Below, in pieces: positions 2,085 through 20,881 of a stretch of DNA of 64,000 nt. The translations under genes were made by a program, and so were the position numbers. The stretch comes from an uncultured Streptosporangiaceae bacterium (GTDB lineage: Bacteria > Actinomycetota > Actinomycetes > Streptosporangiales > Streptosporangiaceae). The DNA is taken from the NCBI GenBank assembly GCA_964581815.1, contig CAZORE010000010.1:34385-98384 (forward strand), written 5' to 3'. Within the stretch, counting starts at the first letter, position 1. Every line of letters begins with the position of its first letter. Under the pieces are notes generated by a model. The model saw only the letters and a program-made list of their open reading frames with translations, searched no databases and was not told the origin of the DNA.

Positions 2085-5000
2085 GTGAGTAGCAACGACT
2101 TTGACGGGCCGTTCTTCAGGCCCGCTGGCGGGCAGGGAGCTGACGACCAGGGAGCCGGGGCGAACGGCGCAAGCGCACAGGGCACGGGCAACGGCGAGCT
2201 AGGCGCCGCCGGCGGTCCCAGGTACCAGGCGCCGGAGGGCTGGGGAAACGACGGCTTCTGGCGAGACTCGTCCATCGACGCGGACTACGAGACGAACACG
2301 CAGCGGCCGATCCGCCCGGGCCGGCACCGCTCGAACGGGGATCCCCGCTACAGCTACTTTTCCGACGGCAACGGCTGGCAGAACTCGCAGAACCCGGCCA
2401 CCCGGCCGGGCCAGTCAGGGGACTCCGCCTGGCCGGCCCAGGCACCGGACGCCACCACAATCGGCGCGACCCGCGTTGGATTCGGCGCGGGCCCCGTGGC
2501 GCCCGGGGGTCCCGCTGGTCCCGCTGGTCCCGCTGGTCCCGCTGGTCCCGGCGGCCCGGCCCGCCCCGGTGACCCTGGCTGGCGGGGCGGTCCCGGCACC
2601 GGCGGTCCAGCCGGCCCAGGCGGTCCCGCGGGCCCGGGCGGTCCGTGGCCGGGCGGTCCGGCGGGACCGGGCGGTCCGTGGCCGGGCGGTCCCGGCGGGT
2701 ACGCTCCCGGGGGCCCCGGAATGCCGGCCGGCCCAGGCGGCCCTGGCTGGCCTGGCGGCCCGGCAGGTCCCGGCGGCCCGGCGGGACCCGGTGGCCCGGC
2801 AGGACCCGGCGGCCCTCGGCGACCGGGCGGTCACGCCGGCCCGGGGCGGAACGGCAGGCGCAAGGGCGACTGGTGGCGCCGCTGGACGTGGCAGAAGGCG
2901 CTCGCCCTCACCGGCGGCCTCGCCCTGATCTTTGTGCTCGGCATGTTCGGCGTCTACGAGTACCTTTCCTCCTCGGCCACGATCCCCACCGCACTCGCCT
3001 CGGCGAACTACCAGAACACGACCGTCTACTACGCCGACGGCAAGAGGGTCATCGGCACCATCGGCTCGACCAACCGGCAGGATCTCGCCTACGCGCAGAT
3101 CCCCATGCAGTTGCAGGACGCCGTCGTCGCCGCGGAGGACAAGAACTTCTGGACCGAGGGCGGCATCTCGCCGACCGGCATCGTGCGCGCCGCCGTCCAC
3201 GACCTGACGACCAGTGGCAACAACAACGGTGGCTCCACGATCACCCAGGAATTCGTCCGGAATTACTACGAGGGCGTTGGCACCCAGCAGACGGCAAGCA
3301 GGAAGATCAAGGAGATCTTCATCGCGCAGAAGCTGGCTGGGACCAAGTCCAAGCAGTGGATCATGACGAACTACCTGAACCTGATCTACCTGGGTGAGAA
3401 CTCCTACGGCGTCGCGGCGGCCGCCCAGACTTACTTCGGCAAGCCAGTGTCGGAGCTGACCTGGTCACAGGACGCGTTGATCGCCGGCCTTATCCAGGCG
3501 CCGTCGACCTACCCGCTGCCCTCTAACCGGCCGGCGCTCATCGCCCGCTGGAAGTACGTGCTGCAGCAGCTGGTGCTCACCAAGGACATCACCGCGGCTC
3601 AGGCGAGCACGATGACGTTCCCCAAGCTGCTCACCGACTCGGCGACGAGTGCCTCGAAGGGTGCCTCGGAGATGGCGGCCTCGGGCGACCCGTGGTCACC
3701 GTACATCTTGAACGTGGTCTACAACGAGCTCACCTCCCCCAAGAGTCTCGGTGGGGATGGTATTTCGGTGTCGCAGGTGGAGACCGGCGGCCTCAAGATC
3801 GTGACCACGATCAGCTACTCGATGGAAAAGGAGATGTACAAGGCCGTCGACGCGAACATCGCCGCGATCAAGGCGACGCCCGGCGCCCAGTACCCCTCGT
3901 ACATCAGGATCGGCGCCGAACTGCAGAACCCCAATAACGGCGAGATCCTCGCCATGTACCCGGGCCCCGGGCAGAACATGTCCGCCGCGGACTGCAAAAA
4001 GTGGGACTGCAGCGATAACACCGCGGTCTACGCGCGCGAGCAGGTCGGGTCGTCGTTCAAGCCGTACGTGCTGTCCGCCGCGGTGGCGGCCGGCATGAAC
4101 GTCAAGACCAGCACGCTGAACGCGAGTCAGTACCTCTGCGTGCCACCGGACGGCCTGTCGGCCACCCTGTCCAAGACAATGAAGTATTACTCGGGCAGCC
4201 TGAGCGAGTGCGCGGACAACGGCCTCAACAGCTACTTCCCCGTCGAGAACGACGGCGGCGAGATCATCGGCAACCCGAAGAAGGGCGGCGGCACCACGGT
4301 GCAGAACGCCCTCGCCCAGTCGTCCAACACCGCGTTCACCGACCTCACCCACCGGGTCACCACGTCGAACGTGATCAGGATGGCGAAAGCCTTCGGCGTC
4401 AGCATCGCGGACTACCCCAACGGGTCGGGCCTGACCAGCGATGTCGGCCAAACGAACATCGCGCTCGGTATCGCGCCGCTGACGGTCAACGAGCAGACCA
4501 CGATGCTCTCCGCCATCACCAACGACGGCGTCTATCACCAGTCGCACATCGTTAAGTACTGGCAGCAGCCAGACGGCTCCGAGCAGACGCCGACGGTCGC
4601 GTCGCACGGGGTGCTCGACCCGTCCAACCCGACGACCAACGCGGAGCTCGACTCCCAGGTCCAGTACGCGATGGAAATGACGACGGTCGACGGCACCGGC
4701 ACCGCGGCCGCCTACGGGCTCGGCAGCCGGCAGATCATCGCCAAGACCGGAACGACGAGCGGCTCCACGGCCGGCTTCTTCATCGGCGCCATTCCCCAGT
4801 ACTCCCTGGTCGTGGGCATGTTCGTCGCGAACCCCGCGAACACATCGGAGAGCCTGGTGCCGCTCACCGGCGGCGGCTTCGGTGGTTACTGGCCCGCCAA
4901 GATCTGGAACACGTTCGCCCAGGCGGAGTTCGCCAACCTGCCACAGGAGACCTTCCAGAACGCTACGTTCACCGGCGCGGCGTGGAACCAGGTCGGCAAG

Positions 5001-5510
5001 ATCGCCCCGGACCAGATCAGCTGCTATATGGCGGACGGCAAGAAGCACAAGATGGCGGTCAAGACCTGCCCCACCCCGGCCCCCCAGGTCAACTGCGGCT
5101 TCGACCAGCAGACCGGGAACAACGACCTGTGCACCACCTGCACCTTCGACCAGGCGAACGGTCAGTTCGACAACTGCGGGCAGCCGACGCAGTGCTCCTT
5201 TAATCAGGCGGACGGTCAGTTCGACAACTGCGGGGGCGCCTCCCCGTCAGACTCGGCGACCTGCCAGCAGGGTGATCCCGCCTGTACCAGCGCTAGCCCG
5301 TCGCCCAGCGCTACCTGCACGGACCCGGCCAATCCCGCCTGCGCGACGGCCAGCACCAATGGCACCGGTACAAGCATTCCGACGGTCAGCCTTTCCCAGT
5401 CCGGCCTGGCCGTCGGCGGCGGCCTGGCCGGCCTGCCCGGCGCGGGCTCGGTGCTGTGGGCCGCGGCGTCTCGTCGGCGGCGCAGGCGCCGCGCGGGTAC
5501 GGCAAGATAG
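2085..5510 (+). CDS. ponA: Class A penicillin-binding protein (transglycosylase + transpeptidase) with Pro/Gly-rich N-terminus and Cys-rich C-terminal extension
   Basis: GT51 motifs [32 protein letters not shown]; transpeptidase SxxK (SSFK), SxN (SSN), KTG. GTG 2085 follows GAGGA; the ORF is open from 2052. Confidence 0.9.
2508..2549 (+). repeat. 9-bp tandem repeat GGTCCCGCT (about 4.7 copies, Gly-Pro-Ala) inside ponA
   Basis: Directly visible; part of a longer GPGGP/GPAGP low-complexity tract of about 2490-2850. Confidence 0.9.
5139..5234 (+). repeat. Duplicated 42-bp unit encoding C-x-F-x-Q-A-x-G-Q-F-D-N-C-G in the ponA C-terminal extension
   Basis: Copies at 5139-5180 and 5193-5234, 54-nt period. 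Confidence 0.85.
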
Positions 5511-5546
5511 CCACGTAGAGCTGATATCAGGAGCGGGAGCGCGGTA

Positions 5547-6890
5547 GTGCGGAACCGGTATCCGGCATTCCTCGGCGCGGGCGTCGCCGCGTCGGCGGTC
5601 GCGGCGCTGCTCGGCTACGCGCAGAAATTGCCGTGCAGCTCAGGCGGCGCGTGGAACACCTTCACCGGCCAGTTTCGCGACGCCTGCTACACCGACATCT
5701 ACCCGCTCTACTATGACGAGCAGCTGGCCGCGGGCAAGGTGCCCTACTACGGTCATCCGGTCGAGTACCCCGTCCTGATGGGCTGGATGATGGAAGCCGC
5801 GGCGTGGGCGGTCCACTCCGTCGCGGACGCCTACTCCCGCGGCCGGGACTTCTACTACGTGACGGTGCTGATGCTGGCCGTCTGCCTGCTCGTCGGCGTG
5901 CTCGCGACCGCGGCCACCGCGCACCGGGAGGGCGGCGGGGCGGGCTGGAAGGCGGCGCTGCTGCTCGCGCTTTCGCCCGGCCTCATCCTCGCCGCGTACA
6001 TCAACTGGGACCTGTTCGCGATGGCGCTCACCGCGGGCGGCATGGCCGCCTGGGCGGCGCGCCGGCCATGGCTTGCCGGGGCGCTGCTCGGGCTCGCCGT
6101 CGCGACCAAGTTCTACCCGCTGCTGCTGTTCGCGGCGCTGTTCCTGCTGTGCCTGCGCGCGGGGAAGCTGTTCGAGTTCGGCCAGGCGCTGACGGGCGGG
6201 CTCATCGCCTGGCTCGCGATCAACGTGCCGGTGGCGCTGACCGCCACCTCCGGCTGGGCCGAGTTCTACGCGTTCAGCCGGTCCCGCGGCGCCGACTGGG
6301 GATCGGTCTGGTACCTGTTCGAGCATTACAACGTGCCGGTGGTCGGTAACTCCTCGCTCGGCCAGCTGAACCTCATCACCTCAGGGTCGTTCGCCGTCGC
6401 GTGCGTGCTCATCGCCGTGCTCGCGCTCGCCGCCCCGCGCAGGCCCCGGCTGCCGCAACTCGGTTTCCTGTTGCTCGCTTCGTTCCTGATACTCAACAAG
6501 GTGTGGTCACCGCAATACGTGGTCTGGCTGCTGCCGCTCGCGGTGCTCGCCAGGCCCCGTATCTGGGCCTACGTGCTGTGGCAAGTCGCCGAGGTCGCCT
6601 ATTTCCTCGGCATCTGGGGCTACTTCGTCTACCTGTACAGCGCGTCCGGTGACGGCGTCCCCGGCATCAGCACCGGCTGGTACTTCGTCATCCTCACCGC
6701 CAGGCTGCTGACGGTCGCCGTGCTCGCGTCCACCGTGGTGGTGGACATCCTGCAGCCAGAACGCGACCGTGTCCGGGCGTCCGGCCTCAACGACGACCCC
6801 GCGGGCGGGGTGCTTGACGGCGCGCCTGACCGCCTGGTCCTCGGCTGGCGCGGGGTGGGCCGCCGTCCGGCCGAGGCCGCGGCGGGCTAG
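5547..6890 (+). CDS. Glycosyltransferase family 87 / DUF2029 polytopic membrane protein
   Basis: CYTDIYPLY, VEYPVL, NWDL, GLAVATKFYP, NKVWSPQYVVWLLPL; many hydrophobic segments; conserved position after ponA. Confidence 0.85.
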   Translation: MRNRYPAFLGAGVAASAVAALLGYAQKLPCSSGGAWNTFTGQFRDACYTDIYPLYYDEQLAAGKVPYYGHPVEYPVLMGWMMEAAAWAVHSVADAYSRGRDFYYVTVLMLAVCLLVGVLATAATAHREGGGAGWKAALLLALSPGLILAAYINWDLFAMALTAGGMAAWAARRPWLAGALLGLAVATKFYPLLLFAALFLLCLRAGKLFEFGQALTGGLIAWLAINVPVALTATSGWAEFYAFSRSRGADWGSVWYLFEHYNVPVVGNSSLGQLNLITSGSFAVACVLIAVLALAAPRRPRLPQLGFLLLASFLILNKVWSPQYVVWLLPLAVLARPRIWAYVLWQVAEVAYFLGIWGYFVYLYSASGDGVPGISTGWYFVILTARLLTVAVLASTVVVDILQPERDRVRASGLNDDPAGGVLDGAPDRLVLGWRGVGRRPAEAAAG

Positions 6891-6926
6891 CCGCGCTGGC
6901 GCCCGCCGGCCGTGACCGCCCTGCGG

Positions 6927-7712
6927 TCAGCCCACCCGGTCGCGGAGCCACGCGATGTCGGCGGCCAGGCCCGTCTCCGGGGTCTCGCAGACAACGGGGG
7001 CCCCGGCCGCGCGGACCACGTCGAGCAGCGCCTGCGGGTCGATGGTGCCCGCGTCGAAGTTCGCGTGCCGGTCCGCACCGGAGCCGAACTCGTCGCGCGA
7101 GTTGTTGCAGTGCACCAGGTCGATCCGGCCGGTGATGGCCTTCACCCGGTCAACCGCGTCGGCCAGGTCAATGCCGGCCGAGTTCGCGTGGCAGGTATCC
7201 AGGCAGAACCCGACCTCGCCGCCGCCAGAAACCGAGTTAACGCCCTCCCAGAGCCGGGCGATCGCCTCGAGTGACCGGGCCATCGCGCCGGTGCCGCCCG
7301 CGGTGTTCTCGATGAGCATCGGCAGCGGCCGTTCGATCTGCTCGAGCGCCTTGATCCAGTTCTCGACGCCAACCGCGGGGTCGGCGTCCGCCGTGACATG
7401 CCCGCCGTGCACGATGAGCCCCTTGGCGCCGATGGACGCGGCGGCCTTGAGCTGCTGGCCGAGCAGCTTCCTGCTCGGGATGCGGATCCGGTTGTTGGTC
7501 GACGCCACGTTGATCACGTACGGGGCGTGGATGTAAACGTCCACGTCCGCCGCGGCGTAGGCATCGCGGAGCGCACCGGGATCACCGCCGGGGATAACCG
7601 GCCCCTTCCACCCTTGGGGGTCACCGAGGAAGAACTGCGCCACGCGCGCACCGCACGCAACGGCGTCGTCCAGCGGATGATCGGAGTGGAAGTGCCCGCC
7701 AATACGCATCAT
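6927..7712 (-). CDS. nfo: Endonuclease IV-like AP endonuclease (deoxyribonuclease IV), probably leaderless
   Basis: HAPYVINVAS, VHGGH, LIENTAG, CLDTCH, HCNNS..GSGADRH metal motifs; TAGGCT 6 nt before the ATG. Confidence 0.9.
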   Translation of the reverse strand: MMRIGGHFHSDHPLDDAVACGARVAQFFLGDPQGWKGPVIPGGDPGALRDAYAAADVDVYIHAPYVINVASTNNRIRIPSRKLLGQQLKAAASIGAKGLIVHGGHVTADADPAVGVENWIKALEQIERPLPMLIENTAGGTGAMARSLEAIARLWEGVNSVSGGGEVGFCLDTCHANSAGIDLADAVDRVKAITGRIDLVHCNNSRDEFGSGADRHANFDAGTIDPQALLDVVRAAGAPVVCETPETGLAADIAWLRDRVG

Positions 7713-7757
7713 GGCTAGAGCCTAATGCGGGCCGCCCCCGGGAGATCCGACAAACCG

Positions 7758-8084
7758 TCAGGCGAAGCCGCCGTGGGCGAGGCCGAGCGCTAGGCCCACG
7801 AAGCCGGCGATGATGCCGGCCACGATGATGACCCGTTCTTCCCTGGTCGCTGACATCATCTGGGAGACGAGCCCGACGAGCAGGGCGGCGAGGCCGGTGA
7901 CCGCGGTCACGACCGCCCAGCCGTGAGAACCGCTCGGGCCGGTCCTAAGCAGCAGTCCGAGTGCGAATGAGACCAAGCCGACGATGAGCGTGAAGAACGC
8001 CGCCACGTTGAGCAGCGGGTGGCGCTGACCGTCCGAGTTGAGCGTGAAGTGCGGTGCGTGCCCGCGGGTGCGGATCGTGGTCAC
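7758..8084 (-). CDS. Small membrane protein (about 3 TM)
   Basis: Three hydrophobic segments; GGGAGG RBS before GTG 8084. Confidence 0.75.
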   Translation of the reverse strand: MTTIRTRGHAPHFTLNSDGQRHPLLNVAAFFTLIVGLVSFALGLLLRTGPSGSHGWAVVTAVTGLAALLVGLVSQMMSATREERVIIVAGIIAGFVGLALGLAHGGFA

Positions 8085-8195
8085 GACGGCCTCCCAGGAG
8101 GACTCCGTAGTCCAGGTTCAACTCCACTGTTCCCCTTTTAGCGCCGGATGAACAGGCCCGCGGGCCAGGAACCGGCTCGGAATGTCGTTGGGCCT

Positions 8196-8204
8196 TGGTA
8201 CAGT
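8196..8204 (+). promoter_or_regulatory. Probable extended -10 promoter (TGn-TACAGT) for the rpsF operon
   Basis: TGGTACAGT about 35 nt upstream of the leader hairpin. Confidence 0.45.
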
Positions 8205-8240
8205 TAGTGGCTGCGGACGGGGACTATGAGCCCCGCCGTG

Positions 8241-8287
8241 CCTCCTGTCACGGAACGCCCGTGACCGCGTCAGTCCAGAGGAGGAGC
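8241..8287 (+). promoter_or_regulatory. rpsF leader RNA resembling the S6:S18 autoregulatory element
   Basis: Inner stem GTCACGG (8247-8253) / CCGTGAC (8259-8265); CCTCCT (8241-8246) can pair with the SD AGGAGG (8279-8284). Confidence 0.65.
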
Positions 8288-8291
8288 GCAT

Positions 8292-8582
8292 ATGCGCCAC
8301 TACGAGATCATGATCATCCTCGACCCGAACCTCGAGGAGCGGACGGTACAGCCGTCGCTCGAGGGGTTCCTCAAGGTCGTGACCGCCGACGGTGGCAAGG
8401 TCGGCAAGCTTGACATCTGGGGGAAGCGCCGGCTTTCCTATCCGATCGACAAGAAGCCGGAAGGCATCTACGCCATCGTCGACCTGACCGCCAACCCGGG
8501 TGCCGTCCAGGAGCTCGACCGCCAGCTCAACCTCAACGAGGGCGTGCTGCGGACCAAGGTCCTGCGGCCCGAGCACCGCTAA
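8292..8582 (+). CDS. rpsF: 30S ribosomal protein S6
   Basis: [12 protein letters not shown]...[18 protein letters not shown]...VLRTKVLR. Confidence 0.98.
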
Positions 8583-8627
8583 GCCACAGCCTTATCCATC
8601 AGTTCTGCTAAGACCGGGAGCGCCACA

Positions 8628-9146
8628 ATGGCGGCAGGAGACACCCCCATCACGGTCGTCGGCAACCTCGTCGCCGACCCGGAACTCCGATTCACCCCAG
8701 CCGGCCAGCCGGTGGCGACCTTCAGGATCGCCTCGACGCCGCGGATACGCGACAACGCGAGCAATGAGTGGCGGGACGGCGACAGCCTCTTCCTGACCTG
8801 CAACGTCTGGCGGCAGGCGGCAGAGAACGTGGCCGAATCGCTGCAGCGCGGCATGCGGGTCATCGTGACCGGCCGGCTCAAGCAGCGGAACTATGAGACC
8901 AAGGAAGGCGAGAAGCGCACCGTCTACGAGGTCGAGGTCGACGACGTCGGCCCCTCGCTGCGGAACGCTTCGGCCAAGGTCAACCGGGCCAGCCGCGGCA
9001 GCGGCGAAGGCGGGTTCGGCGGCGGCAACAACCGGGCCGGCGGCAACAACAGCGGCCAGGGGTCAGCGTCCGGCGGCAGCAGCCGCAACGAGGACCCGTG
9101 GGCGTCCGACTCCAGCGCCGGCTACTCCGACGAACCGCCGTTCTAA
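8628..9146 (+). CDS. ssb: Single-stranded DNA-binding protein
   Basis: [15 protein letters not shown] fold, Gly-rich linker, DEPPF acidic tail. Confidence 0.98.
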
Positions 9147-10609: not shown

Positions 10610-10756
10610 GTCCGTGTTGGCACGGAGGCCAGGGGATCGGCACAATGTCAGAGCCGCCGATGACAGGCCCCTTTGACGGACGTCGATCGTCAGACCCCTT
10701 TGGTAGAACGGAGTCGACGCTTGGGTGGGGCGTTACGCGTGGGGAGGAGGCGTCCA

Positions 10757-12109
10757 GTGAGCGTTACCGAGTTGCCGCAGCGCGGCGACGAATTCGAGCG
10801 GATGCCGCCGCACGACGTCGCGGCCGAGCAGTGCGTGCTGGGCGGCATGCTGCTGTCGAAGGACGCGATCTCCGACGTCATCGAGGTGATCAGGCCCACC
10901 GATCACTACCGGCCGGCCCATCAGCTCGTGCACGAGGCCATCCTCGACCTGTATGCGCGCGGCGAGCCTGCCGACCCGATCACTGTCGCCAACGAGCTCA
11001 CCAGGCGAGGCGAGCTCACCCGCATCGGCGGCGCTCCCTACCTGCACACGCTCATCGCTTCGGTACCCACCGCGGCCAACGCCGGGTACTACGCGCGGAT
11101 CGTCAGGGAGCGGGCCATCCTGCGGCGGCTGGTGGAGGCTGGCACGCGGATCGTCCAGTTCGGCTACGCCGGCGACGGTGACGCCGATGAGCTCGTCGAC
11201 CGGGCGCAGGCCGAGGTCTACGCGGTCACCGACCGCCGCATCGCGGAGGACTACCACCCGCTGTCCGAGATCATGCCCGCCGCTCTCGAGGAGATCGAGG
11301 CGATCGGCGCGCACGGCGGCGGCATCAGCGGCGTCCCCACGGGCTTCGCCGACCTGGACGCCCTCACCAACGGCCTGCACGCCGGCCAGATGGTCGTCAT
11401 CGCGGCCCGCCCCGCCGTCGGCAAGAGCGCACTCGCACTCGACTTCGCGCGGTCGGCGACGATCAGGCACGGCCTCCCCACCGTGGTCTTCTCGCTGGAG
11501 ATGGGGCGGAACGAGATCACGATGCGGCTGCTGTCGGCCGAGGCGCGGGTGCCGATGCACGTGATGCGGACCGGCCAGATGAGCGACGATGACTGGGGCC
11601 GGCTCGCCAAGCGAATGAGCGAGGTCGCGGACGCGCCGCTGTTCATCGACGACTCGCCGAACATGTCGCTCATGGAGATCAGGGCCAAGTGCCGACGGCT
11701 CAAGCAGCGCCACGACCTCAAGCTCGTCATCATCGACTACCTGCAGCTGATGTCCTCGCCCAAGCGGACCGAGAGCCGACAGCAGGAGGTCTCCGAGATG
11801 TCCCGGTCGCTCAAGCTGCTGGCCAAGGAGCTTGAGGTGCCCGTGGTGGCGCTCTCCCAGCTGAACCGGGGGCCCGAGCAGCGCCAGGACAAAAAGCCGA
11901 TGTTGTCCGATTTGCGCGAATCGGGTTCTATCGAACAAGATGCGGATGTTGTCATACTTTTGCATAGAGAAGATGCATATGAGCGGGAATCGCCCCGGGC
12001 CGGTGAAGCGGACCTGATCGTCGCCAAGCACAGGAACGGGCCGACCGCGACGGTCACGGTGGCGTTCCAGGGGCACTACAGCCGCTTCGTCGACATGGCC
12101 CCAGGCTGA
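10757..12109 (+). CDS. dnaB: Replicative DNA helicase, intein-free allele
   Basis: PPHDVAAEQCVLGGML, AARPAVGKS (Walker A), FSLEM, IDYLQLM, LSQLNR, DLRESGSIEQDAD, IVAKHRNGPT; GGAGGAGG RBS before GTG 10757. Confidence 0.97.
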   Translation: MSVTELPQRGDEFERMPPHDVAAEQCVLGGMLLSKDAISDVIEVIRPTDHYRPAHQLVHEAILDLYARGEPADPITVANELTRRGELTRIGGAPYLHTLIASVPTAANAGYYARIVRERAILRRLVEAGTRIVQFGYAGDGDADELVDRAQAEVYAVTDRRIAEDYHPLSEIMPAALEEIEAIGAHGGGISGVPTGFADLDALTNGLHAGQMVVIAARPAVGKSALALDFARSATIRHGLPTVVFSLEMGRNEITMRLLSAEARVPMHVMRTGQMSDDDWGRLAKRMSEVADAPLFIDDSPNMSLMEIRAKCRRLKQRHDLKLVIIDYLQLMSSPKRTESRQQEVSEMSRSLKLLAKELEVPVVALSQLNRGPEQRQDKKPMLSDLRESGSIEQDADVVILLHREDAYERESPRAGEADLIVAKHRNGPTATVTVAFQGHYSRFVDMAPG

Positions 12110-12117
12110 CGGCTGTT

Positions 12118-12193
12118 TGTAGGTTCTCATCACAGTTGGCCAACGTCTCATCGATCTGGCCAACAGATGGCCAATTGGCCAGATCGATGAGAC
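12118..12193. repeat. dnaB-proximal transposon end: terminal IR plus inverted pair of 19-bp sites
   Basis: Terminal site 12118-12142; GTCTCATCGATCTGGCCAA (12145-12163) and its perfect reverse complement (12175-12193). Confidence 0.85.
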
Positions 12194-12249
12194 ACCAGGT
12201 GGCCAGTCTGGGCTGATGGGATGCTGGTGCGGAGGTTACGGGGGCGGCC

Positions 12250-13176
12250 GTGCTTCTGCGAGAGGGTCGAGCATTGCCGTATGACCGCTACCTGCCTGGC
12301 GAGGTCATGTTCTGGGACATCGATGACATCGCCGAGTCCCTCTCCTGGGATCCAGATCCGCTGACGCTGAGACTCCAGCTGAGGTCCCCCGACCCGTACA
12401 GCGGACGGCCAGTCCCGGCCTGCTGGGTGGTTTACACGCGGGGATTGTTCCTTGTGACGTGTGATCTGACCGGGTTCGCTGACATGGCCTGCCGTCACGG
12501 CCTGACCGTCGTTGCTTGCTCGGGTGGTGAGCTGGTGCTGCAGGAGGAGGGCTGCTCCAAGCAAACGGTCGTCCGCCTGCTGGATCGTGATCCGCCGCGA
12601 AACGCATCGCCGCGCTGGTGGCTAGAGCAGGAGGGCGATTGGATCAGCTGGTATAAGACGGAGGAGCGCAGGCGCCGGGACGCTGCTCTCCTTAAGGAGA
12701 CGCGGGTGACCGATGAACAGCATGCAGAGGTCGACGCCCTGATCGCCGAGGCTCGTGCGGCAGGCCGCTGGCTGGGCGGATATGAAGTGGCAGCGCGTTT
12801 CAGGCTGTCGCTTTACGGTGCCGAGCGTCTGCTGTGGGAACGCATGCCCCCGCCGCTTACGGACGATGAGGTCGCGGACGTGGTCCGCCGCCTGGCCCTT
12901 GCCGGCGGCGGCAGGGTCAGGGCGCAAGACGTGGTGCCGTTCGGGGCCGCGAGACCGCGTGCGGTCATAGCCGTGAGGCAGTACTACGGGCCGGACTTTT
13001 CGAAGCTCGAGCGCGACGAGCAGGGACGAGTGACGGGGCCGCAGGTCCTTGAGGCCTACGGCCTGTGTGCGGGCACGTTGTACTGGAGGGTCCGGCGCGG
13101 CAGCCTGAAAGTGGTCGGTAAGGCAGGCAGGGAGAGGCTGTTCGACTACGAGCAGGTCCGCGCGGTCCTAGGCTGA
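12250..13176 (+). CDS. Hypothetical protein with C-terminal MerR/excisionase-like HTH
   Basis: C-terminus VTGPQVLEAYGLCAGTLYWRVRRGSLKVVGKAGRERLFDYEQV fits an HTH_17-like pattern; the N-terminal part is not recognised. Confidence 0.6.
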   Translation: MLLREGRALPYDRYLPGEVMFWDIDDIAESLSWDPDPLTLRLQLRSPDPYSGRPVPACWVVYTRGLFLVTCDLTGFADMACRHGLTVVACSGGELVLQEEGCSKQTVVRLLDRDPPRNASPRWWLEQEGDWISWYKTEERRRRDAALLKETRVTDEQHAEVDALIAEARAAGRWLGGYEVAARFRLSLYGAERLLWERMPPPLTDDEVADVVRRLALAGGGRVRAQDVVPFGAARPRAVIAVRQYYGPDFSKLERDEQGRVTGPQVLEAYGLCAGTLYWRVRRGSLKVVGKAGRERLFDYEQVRAVLG

Positions 13177-13292
13177 CGGCTGAAGCGAGCTGGGTACGCG
13201 CGGCTCAAGGGGCCCCGGGCACACCTCGCTGGACCTGCCGGGTGGAGGGACTCCTCGATGCACCCGGGTGCACGCAGGGAACAAGAGGGCAG

Positions 13293-14840
13293 TCATGGAC
13301 GCGGGGACGGGCCTGGGGTCGCCGGAGTATGGTCGCGTGCGCTGCGGCGGAGGGTTCCCTGCCTGCTCGGGCTATTCCACCCGGCCAGCCGGCGGCTTAG
13401 ATCAGCGGGCGGAGACCGCCAGGCTGTCCCGGCTAGGCCTGCGGATTCCGGCTGCCAGGCGACCGGCTCGTCGATACGGTGACGCAGCAGCAGCCGTTCC
13501 GCTTCCAGGGCCACGTAGTCCGCGAGCCCGCTGGCCTCGTTGTCACGGAACGCGGCATACCGGGCGCGGTCAGGGTGATGCCACGGAGCCAGGCTTCCTT
13601 CGGAGAATCTGATGTCCCTGCCGGTCAGGGTTTCCCAGAGGAGCATTGTCACGTACCGGCGGCGGCGCGCGGTGAGTACGATGCCAGCGCCGCGGCAAGC
13701 CCTGCGGAGCCGGGTGGGTGTCAGGAGGCCGAGGTCACCGAAGACGTGCCGACGCCTGGCGTAGTCGATCGGCGGGGGGTGAGCGGTCAGCTCTTCCACG
13801 AGGGCGTCGATGCTTGCGAGCAGTTGCTCGAGGCGGCCCTGACTGTCAAGGCGGCGCAGGACCGAGGTGACTGTCGCGCCTGCCTGCCGGGGAAGGACGA
13901 GGCTGGCGGCGACGCGCTGCCACTCCTGGCGCGTGCCGCACCGCACGATCGCCATCGACAGGGTGACGGTGAGCATGCCGGTGTCCTGGTCTCCCTCGCG
14001 GGCCAGCGCGCTGGCGACGCTCTTCCACACAGCCTGAGGGACGAGCCGGGCGGAGACGGAAGCCAGCCGGCCCGGCGTGAAGGGCCAATCCGCTGCCGTG
14101 GTCCTGCCCGGGGGACGCCGGGGGACGGCGTTCCCGGTCCGGTAGGTAAGCATGTCGGCTGCGCTCATGTCGGCCGCGCGCCGCCAGAGGATGATGGCGT
14201 CGAGCACCGGCGACCCGGTTGCGCCCAGGTCCAGGTGCGTCGGCCACGGCGCCGAGTGCGGCCGTTGCCGGAACGGGAACGCCGGCGACGGTGACCTCGC
14301 CGGGAGCGGTGATGAGGTCGTTGAGCCACCGCTGGCAGGCGAGTAGCGGGTCCGAGGGGTCCAGGTCATGCGGCTCCTGCCCGGCCAGGGACGCGCCGCA
14401 CCGCGGAAGGCGCGGGCCGGCTTTTCCCGTGGCAGGCGCTGGGGCAGGGTGGCAGCAGCGCCGCGGGTCGATGAGGTGGTCGAGCCGGTTCTCGCCCGCC
14501 CGCGGGCGGCGGCCGCACGCGGCGCACGCGCAGGACATGAGCATGTCCAGTTCAGGTGCCAGGACAATGACCAGCGGCCGTCGTTCTCCGTAAGGCAGCG
14601 CGGGCAGAACCCGGACCCGGACGCCCGGGCCCACGTGCTGAACCGGCCGGCCGGAAACCCTCGCCCCGGAGCTCCTGCCAGACCCAGCGCGGCGTACCGC
14701 TCCAGGACCGCGCTGTCCAGCCGGCCGACGGCGGTCCCGGTCTGCCGCTCCAGGGAACGCAGCGCCTCATCGCCGATCCCGCGGATGAGGCCGTAGGGGG
14801 TGCGGGGGGCCGGCAGGCCGAGGGCCGGCACGAGTTCGCA
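13293..14840 (-). pseudogene. tniQ: TniQ/TnsD-like target selector, 5'-truncated, with two frameshifts (about 14530 and 14240)
   Basis: FCPRCLTENDGRWSLSWHLNWT (TniQ CxxC-W motif) continues in another frame as CAACGRRPR...CGASL...LLACQRWL, then returns to PPIDYARRR...EPVAWQP. Confidence 0.75.
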
Positions 14841-15102
14841 GTGCCTGGACCACGTCCTCGTGCTCGGCGAGCGGCATCTCCGCGAGGTCCTGGCCGGGTA
14901 CGCCCGGCACTATAACGGGCATCGTCCGCATCAGGGCCTGCAGCAGGAACCCCCACTGCGCCGACCCAGCGAGGCAGTCGATACCACCGCCAGTATCGAG
15001 AGCAGGAAGGTTCTCGGCGGCCTGATCAGCGAGTACAGCAGAGCGGCTTAGCAAGCGCGAAAACGCCGGTTCAGCGCCCATACGCGAGTTTGGCACGGCA
15101 CA
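14840..15102 (+). mobile_element. IS481-like integrase-core element, 3' fragment with one terminal end
   Basis: CLDHVLVLGERHLREVLAGYARHYNGHRPHQGL...VLGGLISEYSRAA* (stop 15051), then GAGTTTGGCACGGCACA ending in ACA at 15102. Confidence 0.7.
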
Positions 15103-15186
15103 CCCGTCCCCGGTCACCTGGACCAGCCCGGCCGCGTCGTCGAACGGGCCGGGTGTGACTGGCATTAGGTGATGGCCGTTCGGAAT

Positions 15187-16086
15187 CTACATCGGTCCGT
15201 TCAAGACATCGGCGATGAAGTGCACGATTCGTTCTGCCGCTCGCCGCTCTGGATCAAGGTCAGGGTTGTAGACGCCAAGGCTCCATCCGCGGGCGCCTCC
15301 GACTTGCAGCGCCGATGAGGCGATGGCGGTTAGCTCGGGCCACGACAGCCCGCCGGGCATTGCGTCGTCGCTAGCGGCTCCGCAGGCGCTGAACTCATGC
15401 CTGTCGAGCACATCCAGGTCGATGTGCAGCCACCATCCGGAAGCTTGTGATGTGACCTGCTCGGCGGCTTTGCGGCCGCCTCCTGCCGGATCGTCGTGGA
15501 GGTCAGCGGCGGTACGGAGCCGTACTCGGTCCGCGATCGTGGGGGCTGCGATTTCGCGGCGGTACAGGCCGTCGCGCATCCCCAGCATGGCGATTGCCTC
15601 CGGCCGCAGCACGCCCGCATGGCTGCGCAGTGGTTCCGGCGCTCGCTGGCCAGTCAGGCCCAGCAAGAAGGCTACCTCCATGTTGGCGGCCTCTCCGGTC
15701 GTGGAGGCTTCCATGGTCGTGGCATCTTCGTGGCCGTCGATGAAGACCAGGCCAGCCCCACCGAGAATGTCCGCAAGCGCAGGCACCGCTCCGAGGAGTA
15801 CTGCGCAGTCAGCGCCGTAGATCAGCGGAAACCGTCCTTGTGCCAGAGTAGCCCGGACCCGCGCATGAAGCCTGCCCACCATTTCCAGCAGCGCGCGCTC
15901 ATTCATGAACCCAGCGGGTCCACGTGCCGCAGTGGGCTCCGAGACGATGACATCCGGCGTCAAGCTCGCGCGATCCTGCAGGGCCGCCGCCAGGCCAGCA
16001 CCCCGTAGCGCGGCGGGAGCACTTGCTTGCCCGGCTAGCCGCCCCGAGCCATCGAAGCACACGCCAATAAGATCAATTGCGTCCAA
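15187..16086 (-). CDS. Arginase/ureohydrolase-family protein
   Basis: [30 protein letters not shown]. Start placed at TTG 16086 behind a GAAGGGA RBS; the ORF is open to 16353. Confidence 0.85.
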
Positions 16087-16195
16087 CCGTGGCGGTCCCT
16101 TCTCGGACCACTTGCTCGCCCTTGATTTCTCCCCGATCCTAACAATCGTGCAATCGACCGGCGGGTACGGGGGTATGTCGGGCTGGCTGACCCCG

Positions 16196-16561
16196 TCAGC
16201 GAAGGGGCCTGCGAGGGTCGGGAAGATAGACGGCTTCGAGCAGGTAGGCGTGGCCGGTCTCACGGCCCCACTGCGCGAGCGCGGTGTGCCCTTCGCGGGC
16301 AGGTACCCCGTCTCGGCCGGCCTGGAGATCTCGCTGGGAGTCCCACTGGGCATAGACGGCGGCGTGCGTGCCGTCGAGCCCTCGATGCAGGGACATGGAG
16401 CGGAAGCCGGGGCGACTGGTGAGTACGTGGATGCGCTCGTGCATGGTGGCCAGCCATCCGTCTACCTGGGCCTCGGCGGCCATCTCCCAGGTCTGAATGA
16501 AGCAGATCCCGCCGTCGGCCGGATCGAGGCGGGGCGCCGTTCCCGTGCGCTCGGCGGTCAT
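16196..16561 (-). CDS. Antibiotic-biosynthesis-monooxygenase (ABM) family protein
   Basis: [26 protein letters not shown]; start overlaps the upstream hydrolase stop. Confidence 0.75.
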
Positions 16562-17451
16562 GGGGCCGCCGTCGAAGCCGCGGACGGCGATGTGAAGAAT
16601 CGGCGCAGCGTATCACCTAGCACGGCTGGCTGCTCCTCGGCCGGGTAGTGCCCGCACCGCTCGATGATCACCTCCTCCGAATGCGGCGCGACCTGGCGGA
16701 TGCTCGCGGCGACCAGGCCGCCGAGCCGCTGCCTGCCGCCGACAGACAGAACGGGACAGCCGGGAACGGGCAGGTCGCCGAAATCCCGGACGTCGTCAGC
16801 CAGGGTCCGGTAGTAACCGAATCCGGCTCGCATGGCCCCGGGAGCGGAGTAGCAGCGCGCATACTCATCCAGGTCAGCCGGGCCGATCGCGCCGGGAGAG
16901 TAAGCATGCTGGCGGTAGAAGTAGGCCAGGAACTCGCGCTCCCGGCCGGCGAGGAGCCACTCCGGCACGTCCAGCATCGTGGCCAGGCTCATCCACCAGG
17001 CGTGCTGCTGGCCGAGGCTGATATCGGCGAGCTCGGCCAGGCCGAAGCCGGGCAGCACGGTCTCGATCGCCGCAAAGTGCGACACCAGGCCGGGATACGC
17101 GGCGGTGAGGTAGTACCCGACGGCGCCACCCCAGTCATGCCCGGCAACGCGGGCCTGGCCGAGCCCGAGCTGATCGATGAGCGCGGCCATATCGGCCGCG
17201 ACGGTCCGCTTGTCGTAACCGCCCTCGGGCCGGTCGGAATCGCCGCAGCCGCGCATATCCACGGCCACGGTGGTGTATTGAGCCGCTAGTGCCGGGATGA
17301 CCCGCCGCCAGGCATAGCTGGTCTCCGGCCACCCGTGCAGCAGCAGGACCAGAGGTCCGTCACCGGCTGTCCGCAGGTGCAGCGAGATCCCGTTCACTGT
17401 CATCCGCTCGCTGCGCACGGCTGCCGGGCCGGCCGCCGCTGCGTCGGTCAC
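16558..17451 (-). CDS. Alpha/beta hydrolase (epoxide-hydrolase-like)
   Basis: LLLHGWPETSYAWR, DMRGCGDS, GHDWGG nucleophile elbow, CGHYPAEE; GTG 17451 overlaps the upstream stop. Confidence 0.9.
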   Translation of the reverse strand: MTDAAAAGPAAVRSERMTVNGISLHLRTAGDGPLVLLLHGWPETSYAWRRVIPALAAQYTTVAVDMRGCGDSDRPEGGYDKRTVAADMAALIDQLGLGQARVAGHDWGGAVGYYLTAAYPGLVSHFAAIETVLPGFGLAELADISLGQQHAWWMSLATMLDVPEWLLAGREREFLAYFYRQHAYSPGAIGPADLDEYARCYSAPGAMRAGFGYYRTLADDVRDFGDLPVPGCPVLSVGGRQRLGGLVAASIRQVAPHSEEVIIERCGHYPAEEQPAVLGDTLRRFFTSPSAASTAAP

Positions 17452-17777
17452 AGGGACCAATCGACGGGGTAGTTGACGATCGGGACAAAAGCAACGCCGG
17501 CCTTCTCGGCGGCGGCACGGGCATCGACGATCATCTCCTTCAGCGTGCTCATCTGCCGGGCATGCTCGTCGGATTGCCACAGGCTGACGTGGACCATCGA
17601 CCCGTCCGGGGAGGCGCCGGCGTAGTAGCTGATCAGGCCAGGCAGCTGCCGGATCGCAGGCGACAGGTAGCGGCCGGTCGCCGCGATCATGACCTGGATT
17701 TCACCGAACCGGGCCGGATCGAAGTCACCGCGGGAAATACGGACAACGGCTGCGGCTGGCAGCGGTGTCGTGGTCAT
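17448..17777 (-). CDS. Small dimeric alpha/beta-barrel (ABM-like) protein
   Basis: AIRQLPGLISYYAG...MVHVSLWQSDEHA pattern; first gene of a coupled operon divergent from a TetR. Confidence 0.6.
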   Translation of the reverse strand: MTTTPLPAAAVVRISRGDFDPARFGEIQVMIAATGRYLSPAIRQLPGLISYYAGASPDGSMVHVSLWQSDEHARQMSTLKEMIVDARAAAEKAGVAFVPIVNYPVDWSL

Positions 17778-17891
17778 GGGCTTGACCTTCCTCGTGCTAG
17801 ATTACGTTTCGATCCCCTATCGGAATTAATCCTACAGGAACTGGCCGCCGGAACGGCCGCAGGATGCAGGATGGTGAGCGTGTGCGCTGAG

Positions 17892-18518
17892 ATGAGCCGA
17901 CCCGCGGGCCGGCCCAGGAACCCGGGGCTGGACGCAGCCATCCTGGTCGCCGCTGAGCGTCAGCTCGGCGAACGCGGGTACGCGCGGATGTCGCTGGAAT
18001 CGGTAGCCGCCGCGGCGGGCACCACCGTGCCGACGGTCCGGCGCAGGTATCGCGGCAAGGCCGACCTGGCCGCAGCGGTCATCGGATCGCTGCGCGTCAC
18101 TAACCTGCCCGCGGGAGCGGCGACGCCGCGGGCTGACGCGCTGGCGATCCTGCGGAACTTTCAAGCCAACCTGGGACGGAAGGACGCCATGGCACTGGTC
18201 GGCAGCCTGCTCGCCGAGGAACGCCGGCACCCGGAGCTGCTGGAGATCTTCCGCGAGCGCCTTGCCGGGCCACGGCGGGCCAGCTTGCGCCAGGCGCTGG
18301 CGGACGGCGCAGCGGCCGGCCAGCTGCCCGCGTCCATCGACCTAGACGCGCTGGCCAGCATGCTGATCGGCTCCTTTTACGCCCGCTACCTGCTCAGCTC
18401 CGACCTGCCAGCCGACTGGGCAGAGCGCACCTTGCAGGCGGTCTGGCCGAACCCGCCGGCAGGTGCACGGGTTCCGCCGACCCGCCGCCTGGCTACGTGG
18501 CCCAATCGACCAAGTTAG
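17892..18518 (+). CDS. TetR/AcrR-family regulator
   Basis: GRPRNPGLDAAILVAA..LGERGYARMSLESVAAAAGTTVPTVRRRYRGKADL HTH. Alternative start at 17871. Confidence 0.9.
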   Translation: MSRPAGRPRNPGLDAAILVAAERQLGERGYARMSLESVAAAAGTTVPTVRRRYRGKADLAAAVIGSLRVTNLPAGAATPRADALAILRNFQANLGRKDAMALVGSLLAEERRHPELLEIFRERLAGPRRASLRQALADGAAAGQLPASIDLDALASMLIGSFYARYLLSSDLPADWAERTLQAVWPNPPAGARVPPTRRLATWPNRPS

Positions 18519-18780
18519 CGGCGCGCGTCAAGCCGGAACACACCACTGGCGCGGCCCGACGGTTTTACAGCTCGGCCCATCCGGGGCTAGTCGCGTTCGC
18601 GTGAAATCTTCGGCGCGTGCGGGCGGGGTTGGATGGTGGCGGGCTGCCCGTGACACCGGCAGGTTTGTGGGATCTGAGCCCGTTTTACAGCTTGGCGCCG
18701 GGACCTGACCTTTGAGGATTGCTTTCTGCTGCCGTGAGCGCGCTGGCCGGCCGGTGGCTTTGCCGCGTGCCCGCAAGGCT

Positions 18781-19160
18781 TCAGGCTCGGGTTACCATTC
18801 GCGCGAGGTTCTCGATGGACCGCTCCAGCGCCGCTGCCGGCGCGACGGGCCACGTTAGCCTGGCTCGCAGCTCGTCGCTGATCGCGTGCCAGTCGCAGTA
18901 GTTGGTCACATCGCAGGTGGTGTCGCCCACCGGTTCGATCTGCCAGCCGTAGACCCGCCCGCTGGGTGCCTTCCCGGCTAGCGCGGGAGCCCATTCGAGG
19001 AGGTGGTCCGGGACGATGCGGGTGACAGTGTTGAGGATCGTGTAATACCTGGGGAGGCTGCCGATGCCGGCGACGTCGCCGAGGGGCTGGCGATCCATCT
19101 CGATGTCGAAGGTGTCGCCGGCCGCCTTCAGCCGGTGGGCGCCGCCCACGTTCCGCAGCG
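18781..19160 (-). pseudogene. 5'-truncated SRPBCC/polyketide-cyclase-like gene
   Basis: GDTFDIEMDR...NTVTRIVPDHLLEWAP...GRVYGWQIEP...CDVTNYCDWHAI; the N-terminus is replaced by IS630 sequence. Confidence 0.55.
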
Positions 19161-19280
19161 CTGGCCTGCTCCTTGTGGCTGGCGTGGTCGGTGCCGCCGA
19201 GCGCGAAGTAGCGCAGGGCGGTGAACGGGGATGCGGTTTAACCAGGACGAATTCGTCGGCATGCAGGCGATTTCGACGCT
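19160..19280 (-). mobile_element. IS630-family transposase C-terminal fragment
   Basis: Minus strand reads VEIACMPTNSSWLNRI then, after a frameshift, FTALRYFALGGTDHASHKEQ. Confidence 0.7.
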
Positions 19281-19393
19281 TGAGAACGGCAGCCCGGCTC
19301 GCTGACCTCGTGGCACTGCCCGCCTGGTGTCCGGCAGGGACAGGTGCCCCGGTCCTTTGCTCCCGCATCGCCGGGATGCGATCTTCATGCCCG

Positions 19394-19864
19394 TCAACCC
19401 TGAGCCTGCGTGGCGTCAGCCAGGCTGTCGGCGTAGCTCGCGGTGAGCTGCTGTGCCCGGTTGAGGAAGTTGTCGATGAGCCGCAGTTGCTCGTCTGTGT
19501 ACGCGGACAGGAGTTCCGCGGTCTGACGGATCAGGCTGCCGAAGACTTCCTGATCCCGGGAGGTGGTGGCCTCGGTGATGGCCACGATCTGACGGCGGCG
19601 GTCGGCGGGGTCGGGTTGACGGCGGGCATATCCGGCGCGCTCCAGGCGATCGATGACCGTGGTTACGCCCCCGGTCGTGAAGCCAATCAACTGAGCCAGG
19701 TCGGATGGCGCCAGCGGCCCCGCTCGTCCCACGATGTCAAGCGCGCGCATGTCCGTGCGGTTGAGGCCGTACCGGCCGGCCGCCACATGATCCAGGCGGT
19801 CGATCTCCGTGCTCAGCGCGCGCAAGCTGGCCACGACCTGACCGGTAAGCTCACGTCGGTTCAT
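19394..19864 (-). CDS. MarR-family regulator
   Basis: GLNRTDMRALD...LAPSDLAQLIGFTTGGVTTVIDRLERAGYARRQPDPADRRR. Confidence 0.92.
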   Translation of the reverse strand: MNRRELTGQVVASLRALSTEIDRLDHVAAGRYGLNRTDMRALDIVGRAGPLAPSDLAQLIGFTTGGVTTVIDRLERAGYARRQPDPADRRRQIVAITEATTSRDQEVFGSLIRQTAELLSAYTDEQLRLIDNFLNRAQQLTASYADSLADATQAQG

Positions 19865-19874
19865 AGCTTGCCAA

Positions 19875-19903
19875 TCTAGTAATCATTAATGTAAGTTACT
19901 AGA
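19875..19903. promoter_or_regulatory. Probable MarR operator TCTAGTAA-N13-TTACTAGA
   Basis: Perfect 8-bp arms in the AT-rich divergent intergenic region. Confidence 0.6.
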
Positions 19904-19944
19904 AATTCTAGCAGAAATCTGAAGTCTTGCGAAGGGTGAGAGAC

Positions 19945-20676
19945 ATGACCGACGCATTGGACCGCGGCCCCGCGATGGCCGTGACCGCGACCGGCAGGAG
20001 TGGCCCCGTGATCTCCCGAAGGTGGGTGCTGCTGGCCAGCGCCGCGGGGGCCGTGGGCGCGGTGGGCCTTGGCGCCTCGTTCGGCATACTGCCCAAGCCC
20101 CCGCCACTCAACGGCCCGCTGGCCGTGCTGATTCGCTATGCGGCCGGCCACCAGCACGCCATGATGGCGGCGGCGTGGCTTGAGGGTAGCGGGACGCTGC
20201 TGTACGTGATCTTCGCACTGGCGCTTGTCCACCTGGCCGGCGACCGGGCCGGGCTGGCTGGGCGGGTCGCCACGATGGCATCGGCGGTCGTGGTTGCGGT
20301 GAGCCTGGTCTATGACGTGACGCTGATCGCGATCGCACAGTCGGCCTCGCTCGGCGGGCAGCAGGCGACAACGGCCACGGTCGCCTACGGCCTGTTCGCG
20401 GCTGCGGAGCACGCCTTCCTCCTCGCCCCGCCGCTGCTCCTTCCGCTTGGCCTCATCCTGCTGCGGACTCCGATCCTGCCCCGCCCGTTCGCCGTGCTGG
20501 CCGTCATCCTCGGAGTGACCAGCCCGGTGCTCGGCCTGGTCGGCCTGTTCACCGTCACCGCCAACAACAACGGGCCGGTTGGCGCGGCGATCAATGCGCT
20601 GGTCGCGCTAGACGGCCTTTGGGTCCTTGCTGCCGCCGTGATGCTGCCATTGCGCCATCCGGAGCGGTGTGAGTAA
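19945..20676 (+). CDS. Multi-pass membrane protein (DUF4386-like)
   Basis: Five to six hydrophobic segments; divergent from MarR. ORF open from 19927. Confidence 0.7.
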   Translation: MTDALDRGPAMAVTATGRSGPVISRRWVLLASAAGAVGAVGLGASFGILPKPPPLNGPLAVLIRYAAGHQHAMMAAAWLEGSGTLLYVIFALALVHLAGDRAGLAGRVATMASAVVVAVSLVYDVTLIAIAQSASLGGQQATTATVAYGLFAAAEHAFLLAPPLLLPLGLILLRTPILPRPFAVLAVILGVTSPVLGLVGLFTVTANNNGPVGAAINALVALDGLWVLAAAVMLPLRHPERCE

Positions 20677-20695
20677 CGGAGGGCGCGGGCTGAGG

Positions 20696-20799
20696 AATTG
20701 GCCAGATCGATGAGAAAGTTCGCTGGCCAGATCAGTGAGAAAAGCCGAGGAAGCACAGGTCAGCACCCACCCGGTGGCCAAGTCGGATGAGAACCTACA
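20696..20799. repeat. Distal transposon end: three co-oriented sites plus terminal ACA
   Basis: AATTGGCCAGATCGATGAGA (20696-20715, identical to 12173-12192), CTGGCCAGATCAGTGAGA (20723-20740), TGGCCAAGTCGGATGAGAACCTACA (20775-20799). Confidence 0.85.
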
Positions 20800-20881
20800 G
20801 CCGTGCTCGGACACGCCTCAAGCGACACGACCCACGCCAGAGGGTCTGAGCCCGCCGAGAAGCCGCCAGCTGAGCCGGTCG

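Follow-up and report, generated by a model that had tools for sequence, protein, structure and literature searches.

What is an intact helix-turn-helix (HTH) gene doing just inside the end of a transposon relic whose own transposition genes are lost or decayed? This question is raised by ORF308, a 308-aa frame lying beside dnaB, the replicative helicase gene, in a 64,000-nt stretch of DNA (the window) from an uncultured Streptosporangiaceae bacterium (Table 1). The relic is an 8.7-kb Tn7-like element (12118-20799) that begins 8 bp after the dnaB stop codon. It opens at 12118 with TGTAGGTTCTCATC at its dnaB-proximal end and closes at 20799 with the matching inverted terminus GATGAGAACCTACA, with several TCTCATC-N-TGGCCA sites at each end. 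The sites of the dnaB-proximal end, namely two adjacent direct ones, one inverted and one degenerate inverted, together make a palindrome with 17-bp arms, and its inverted sites would give a strong RNA hairpin (fold z -5.07).

Table 1. Coordinates (window numbering) and strands of ORF308, its predicted segments and the surrounding features
Feature	Coordinates	Strand	Evidence and remarks
dnaB, replicative helicase, target gene	10673-12109	+	Pfam DnaB_C 2.2e-108, DnaB 4.2e-34
dnaB-proximal transposon end	12118-12224	+	TGT terminus; inverted repeat I15, direct repeat D8
ORF308 (P0001)	12250-13176	+	308 aa, GTG start; direction as dnaB, converging on tniQ
N-terminal motif, residues 1-50	12250-12399	+	Conserved LPYDRxLPGExMFWD..D.AE.LSW; pLDDT <50
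Residues 51-150	12400-12699	+	Predicted beta-rich domain, then long Trp-rich basic helix PRWWLEQE..W..W..RRR
Two predicted three-helix HTH modules, residues 153-247	12706-12990	+	AF2 helices; first module contains WLGGYEVAARFRLSLYGAERLL
Predicted Xis/MerR-type winged HTH, residues 257-308	13018-13173	+	beta-alpha-alpha-beta-beta-alpha
Decayed tniQ/tnsD-like gene	13293-14831	-	Pfam TniQ covers profile positions 53-136 only
IS integrase core fragment	14800-15051	+	Pfam rve_3 9.8e-7, last 31 profile positions only
Distal transposon end	20695-20799	-	ACA terminus, three spaced sites

Besides ORF308 and the tniQ-like gene, the interior of the element encodes an arginase-family protein, an alpha/beta hydrolase, a TetR regulator, a DUF4386 protein and an unassigned ORF of 271 aa; Pfam scans found no tnsA, tnsB or tnsC there. 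The window's TniQ match is the only one in the whole assembly; no match to the Mu-transposase C-terminal domain was found in the assembly either, a weak result, since the control search matched no genome at all. Compared with its intact 626-aa relative P0025, the window tniQ is missing 40 residues at its start, its middle is shortened and out of frame, and tblastn recovered it as three pieces in different frames, with the rve_3 fragment adjoining the truncated 5′ end. An earlier note, made from the letters of this DNA, had described ORF308 as converging on a decayed tniQ, and the 5′ truncation and frameshift relative to P0025 bear this out. The 5-bp target-site duplication is absent (CTGTT at 12113-12117 versus GCCGT at 20800-20804), indicating that the relic has been rearranged, and its two ends may not derive from one simple insertion.

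ORF308 is a real, intact gene. Its frame opens at 12217, contains no earlier start codon and runs for 308 open codons from the GTG, with GGAGG upstream at 12231-12235. The GC contents at codon positions 1/2/3 are 0.715/0.495/0.773, and a coding pattern is seen in this frame only; the GC3 is comparable to that of the other transposon genes (0.72-0.86) and lower than that of the host genes taken from the window for comparison (0.82-0.89, with five out of six at or above 0.86). The last clear end repeat stops at about 12196, and ORF308 starts ∼55 bp further in. Relatives at 87, 80, 52-55 and 32-37% identity retain the whole length, so that the open frame, the GC pattern and the full-length homologues together uphold the earlier description of an intact 308-aa ORF ∼55 bp inside the end repeats. 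The gene is present once in the 8.18-Mb, 98%-complete assembly. The interval from dnaB to ORF308 showed no terminator-like site, and expression by dnaB read-through or from a promoter in the transposon end is plausible. On the other side of the gene, the 116 bp that separate ORF308 from the converging tniQ contain a perfect 14-bp palindrome, TGCACCCGGGTGCA, at 13258-13271.

The AlphaFold2 (AF2) model of ORF308, built from a 16-sequence alignment and of moderate confidence (pLDDT 68, pTM 0.35), places a beta-rich domain (residues 58-110) and a long helix (125-149) ahead of two three-helix modules, the first with helices at 155-170/177-184/188-198 and the second at 205-218/225-231/235-246, which are weakly similar to each other (P 5e-4). 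By structural search, residues 150-202 matched the HTH domains of LexA and FapR (Z 5.8-6.1), and a second HTH-like segment pointed out earlier (residues 174-195) corresponds to helices 177-184 and 188-198 of the module spanning 155-198. The predicted C-terminal domain consists of strand 260-262, helices 263-270 and 274-282, strands 288-292 and 295-299 and helix 300-307 (pLDDT 77-89), and it fits Pukovnik Xis with Z 6.2 and rmsd 2.1 over 52 of 54 residues; further fold matches were BldC (Z 6.0), TipAL and the GIsul2 and RdfS excisionases. All structural Z scores for ORF308 are below 7, a range that the tool calls common, and they support HTH modules and nothing finer. Foldseek ranked tandem winged-helix arrays best for the whole model (UFL1/DDRGK1, SelB WH2-4 and ScpB; E 0.006-0.1).

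Profile searches pointed to the same C-terminal segment. HTH_17 (PF12728) matched residues 264-305 of P0001 with 17.8 bits (E 0.004), below the Pfam gathering score of 27 bits, and matched 7 of the 16 family members at E up to 1 (best 1.4e-5); mad1, a generic 60-aa HTH profile of PADLOC, matched residues 269-305 at 1.1e-6 as the sole hit in the defence library; and AbiEi_4 matched three of the 16 members, P0001 not among them. The C-terminal excisionase/MerR-like HTH named in the earlier note is thus supported by the sub-threshold HTH_17 match, mad1 and the Pukovnik Xis fit. A PDB sequence search returned only BldC (E 0.05), the ESM Atlas gave only HTH_17/MerR leads (scores ≤0.84), and NCBIfam and PHROGs had no match for P0001. 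As for the N-terminus, which had been called unrecognised, the first 153 residues modelled alone (pLDDT 63.5) gave no structural match above Z 4.5, in agreement with that description. A nucleotidyltransferase- or glyoxalase-like fold for this region was rejected, the best matches, to glyoxalase-like half modules, not being significant (Foldseek E ≥0.07; Z ≤4.5 with the N-terminal model and 5.1 with the whole model). A second Xis-like winged HTH (wHTH), suggested by a similar order of elements in the low-confidence model, was not supported either; this region had no profile similarity to the C-terminal domain and no Xis among its structural matches. The earlier reading had been staked on a fold with a DNA-binding HTH, and HTH modules are indeed predicted. 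On these models, ORF308 and its relatives would form an orphan family whose multi-HTH architecture is new.

Known proteins resemble ORF308 in parts of this architecture. The Xis/excisionase-type wHTH proteins are alike in the C-terminal 52 residues (Z 5.2-6.2, rmsd 2.1-2.7) and, as ORF308, are carried by mobile elements; however, Pukovnik Xis, GIsul2, RdfS and BldC are single domains of 50-70 aa that partner a tyrosine or serine recombinase or, in the case of BldC, act as a small regulator, whereas ORF308 has 308 aa with the wHTH at its extreme C-terminus, after two HTH modules and an unrecognised N-terminal half. Among the listed ORFs of at least 200 aa within 12118-20799, Pfam identified no tyrosine or serine recombinase and only the rve_3 fragment, and a functional excisionase was rejected because the element has no recombinase. 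The MerR regulators TipAL, BmrR, SoxR and CvkR have an N-terminal winged HTH that resembles the C-terminal domain of ORF308 (Z 5.2-5.7), but in those proteins the HTH comes first, ahead of a coiled coil for dimerisation and an effector domain, while in ORF308 it comes last (257-308); with the HTH at the opposite end of the protein, a MerR regulator was rejected as well.

To what kind of element does the gene belong? A HMMER search with ORF308 against 1.84 billion protein representatives returned 12 proteins, all from metagenomes, of which P0003 (87% identity), P0006 (52-55%), P0010 (32-37%) and the shorter P0013 are at or near full length and the others are fragments. A profile search for more relatives added none, two contig scans of genomes found none, and one metagenome scan recovered only the window's own locus, on a 7.3-kb contig (L003) that is 99.93% identical. 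Three of the homologues have a tniQ relative from the same source with the same longest-contig size, i.e. P0016 and P0025 (27,589 bp), P0003 and P0028 (69,722 bp), and P0006 and P0027 (8,509 bp), an equality that bears on co-residence and not on adjacency. Such exact size matches are otherwise hard to explain, and the ORF308 homologues are probably on the same contigs as the tniQ relatives. The identities to the window copies, given as ORF308 homologue/tniQ relative, are 80.5/92% for P0016/P0025, 87/82% for P0003/P0028 and 52-55/69% for P0006/P0027, so the two genes appear to have diverged roughly together over the three pairs; the TniQ domain is complete in P0025 and P0027. Because of the shared contig sizes and the identities falling together, ORF308 probably belongs to one subclade of dnaB-homing Tn7-like elements. 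The earlier note had also asked whether the homologues lie mostly outside transposons: those with any context share a longest-contig size with tniQ relatives, and none was found in plasmids, phages or ∼1,200 genomes (400 each from the family, order and class).

A scan of species genomes with the TniQ alignment yielded 12 related loci, which are more distant than the window's own subclade. At least 8 of the 12 carry tnsA, tnsB, tnsC and tniQ, and hmmsearch with a limit of E 10 detected an ORF308 relative in none of the 12; a search of five whole host genomes of related elements found none either. Judged by this distribution, ORF308 is not a core transposon gene but probably an accessory one, because the 12 related elements do without it. 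The co-occurrence with tniQ and tnsB for which the earlier note had looked is accordingly mixed: three homologues agree with tniQ relatives in longest-contig size, but the gene is absent from the 12 related elements, including those with complete tnsABC-tniQ sets. In two loci, L010 (2709-11938, Gordonia) and L012 (7896-11752, Mycolicibacterium), two tniQ matches lie close together; the L010 pair forms a tandem of a partial and a complete tns set, which suggests that elements have piled up at one attachment site.

Recognisable ends were obtained for three of the 12 related elements, L007, L008 and L009. The insertion point lies 9 bp past the dnaB stop in L007 and L009 and 7 bp past it in L008, so that, with the window, insertion 7-9 bp downstream of this stop is seen in four independent loci (window 12107-12131, L007 9045-9075, L009 4800-4830 and L008 4605-4640). 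Since L007, L009 and L008 use the same dnaB site, dnaB homing does not need ORF308. The gap from tniQ to the end is empty in L009, while in L007 it is filled by a 1363-aa OloA-like gene (4817-8908, minus strand) that is directed as its dnaB, the same orientation as ORF308, and matches PADLOC OloA (2.3e-10) and no Pfam family, making it a candidate defence cargo gene; in L008 an unrelated 456-aa ORF occupies the position of ORF308. That the L007 and L008 occupants are diverged ORF308 homologues was rejected (hhalign probability ≤1%), and the OloA-like occupant suggests that the end-proximal position is a general cargo position. The end architecture upstream of ORF308, including the palindrome, is kept in L007 and L009, both of which lack ORF308; the palindrome is therefore a feature of the transposon end, and an ORF308-specific operator was rejected. 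As to dnaB itself, an A/T-rich patch in the window copy (11885-11990) lies over the conserved RESG/SIEQD motif, and in L007 and L009 a LAGLIDADG intein sits in dnaB at the RESG/SIEQD position; the window dnaB has no intein.

Two clades of the elements also differ in which side faces dnaB. It is the tnsA side in L008 (4619-10589) and L014 (3206-11728), and the tniQ side in the window (12118-14831), L007 and L009, while the layout of the dnaB-proximal end, two adjacent direct sites and then an inverted one, is alike in the window, L007, L009 and L008 (L014 excluded). Because the operon orientation differs while the end layout stays, the comparison suggests that in the window's clade the tns operon has been flipped with respect to the ends. 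ORF308 is the first gene inward and is directed as dnaB, in the position that tnsA has in L008.

The interpretation that we favour, and for which we judge the chances to be about even, is that ORF308 is a sequence-specific DNA-binding regulator or architectural factor resident in one Tn7-like subclade that homes 7-9 bp downstream of dnaB. Expressed from either of the two sources named above, the protein would bind DNA of, or beside, the element and would play a regulatory or architectural role, being neither a core transposition protein nor a TniQ-type target selector. That the gene is intact despite the loss of tnsABC and tniQ speaks, if anything, against a transposition-dependent function. 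The earlier note had proposed an accessory transposition, targeting or defence protein; of this, an HTH protein tied to a transposon stands, whereas nothing in the comparisons links it to transposition or targeting (hhalign ∼0.2% with TniQ and TnsB, absence from the 12 elements) and defence has only the generic mad1 match. A bolder reading would make ORF308 a free-standing multi-HTH Tn7 accessory factor of a kind not seen before, encoded at the target-proximal end and controlling transposition by binding the end or the dnaB attachment region. It could do so as a second target selector, by repressing from the bound end, or by giving immunity to, or excluding, elements that compete for the dnaB site; we regard this reading as unlikely.

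A regulator or architectural factor resident in the subclade has to be weighed against ordinary cargo, i.e. an HTH regulator acting by itself or a DNA-binding protein related to defence or exclusion, in either case foreign to the transposon's own biology, which is possible, though clearly less probable. The varying occupants of the position in L009 (empty), L007 (OloA-like) and L008 (456-aa ORF) agree with cargo, as do the survival of ORF308 next to lost or decayed tnsABC and tniQ and the abundance of defence genes in Tn7-like cargo (PMC8649781). The mad1 match of the C-terminal HTH and the AbiEi_4 matches in 3 of the 16 members could be counted on the same side, but both cover the generic HTH only, and ORF308 adjoins no partner gene such as a toxin, methylase or nuclease. 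The AbiEi antitoxins and mad1 are weak profile matches to the C-terminal HTH of the family, the AbiEi domain order is opposite to that of ORF308, and no AbiEii toxin or MADS partner adjoins the gene; with dnaB and tniQ as its neighbours, no toxin gene and the wrong domain order, an AbiEi antitoxin was rejected. The divergence roughly parallel to that of tniQ, over three pairs and down to 52-55%, speaks against recent capture and points to long residence. That ORF308 is instead no longer selected for, or is an ORF arisen by chance in GC-rich sequence, and has simply not been broken yet, is very unlikely: the relic does hold IS remnants beside the broken tniQ, spurious ORFs of some length occur commonly at 66-70% GC, and some homologue entries are fragments or frameshifted (e.g. 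P0005), but full-length conservation down to 32-37% identity with motifs kept and no frame breaks, coding-type GC1/2/3 in the ORF308 frame only, and predicted folded HTH domains all stand against it.

By analogy with TnsE or TnsF, ORF308 could also be an alternative target selector or targeting co-factor whose HTH array would read the site and signal to TnsC/TniQ, a role that we consider quite unlikely. TnsD-like selectors have multi-HTH C-terminal regions that are used to read attachment sites (PMC10293859), and the TnsD/TniQ selectors and ORF308 share their occurrence in Tn7-like elements, a place by the attachment-site end and tandem HTH modules. An array of this kind adjoining tniQ at the target-proximal end would suit such a reader, and the N-terminal motif, conserved but modelled with low confidence, could act as a peptide that binds another protein. 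Unlike TnsD/TniQ, however, ORF308 lacks both a TniQ and a zinc-finger domain, and its gene runs towards the tns operon and is not part of it. PF06527 did not match ORF308, and aligning the family with the TniQ alignment A3 by hhalign gave a probability of 0.2%; ORF308 was on these grounds rejected as a TniQ/TnsD protein, and an origin of its HTH modules from TnsB or TniQ DNA-binding domains, in the manner of Mu repressor and MuA, was rejected likewise (hhalign ∼0.2%). In addition, the TniQ of this clade is already a long TnsD-like protein (626-690 aa), and relatives without ORF308 use the same dnaB site.

No transposon of the Actinobacteria-dominated Tn7-like clade has been experimentally characterised (Benler et al. 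2021, PMC8649781), and dnaB did not turn up in a full-text term search of two large Tn7 surveys (Benler et al. 2021, PMC8649781; Faure et al. 2023, PMC10293859). Should ORF308 bind the transposon ends or the attachment site at dnaB, a free-standing HTH factor would be added to the parts by which Tn7 elements are controlled or targeted; if it is plain cargo, the list of orphan regulators would grow by one. Of more solid value is the context, an actinobacterial Tn7-like family that homes 7-9 bp downstream of the essential dnaB, of which ORF308 probably marks one subclade.
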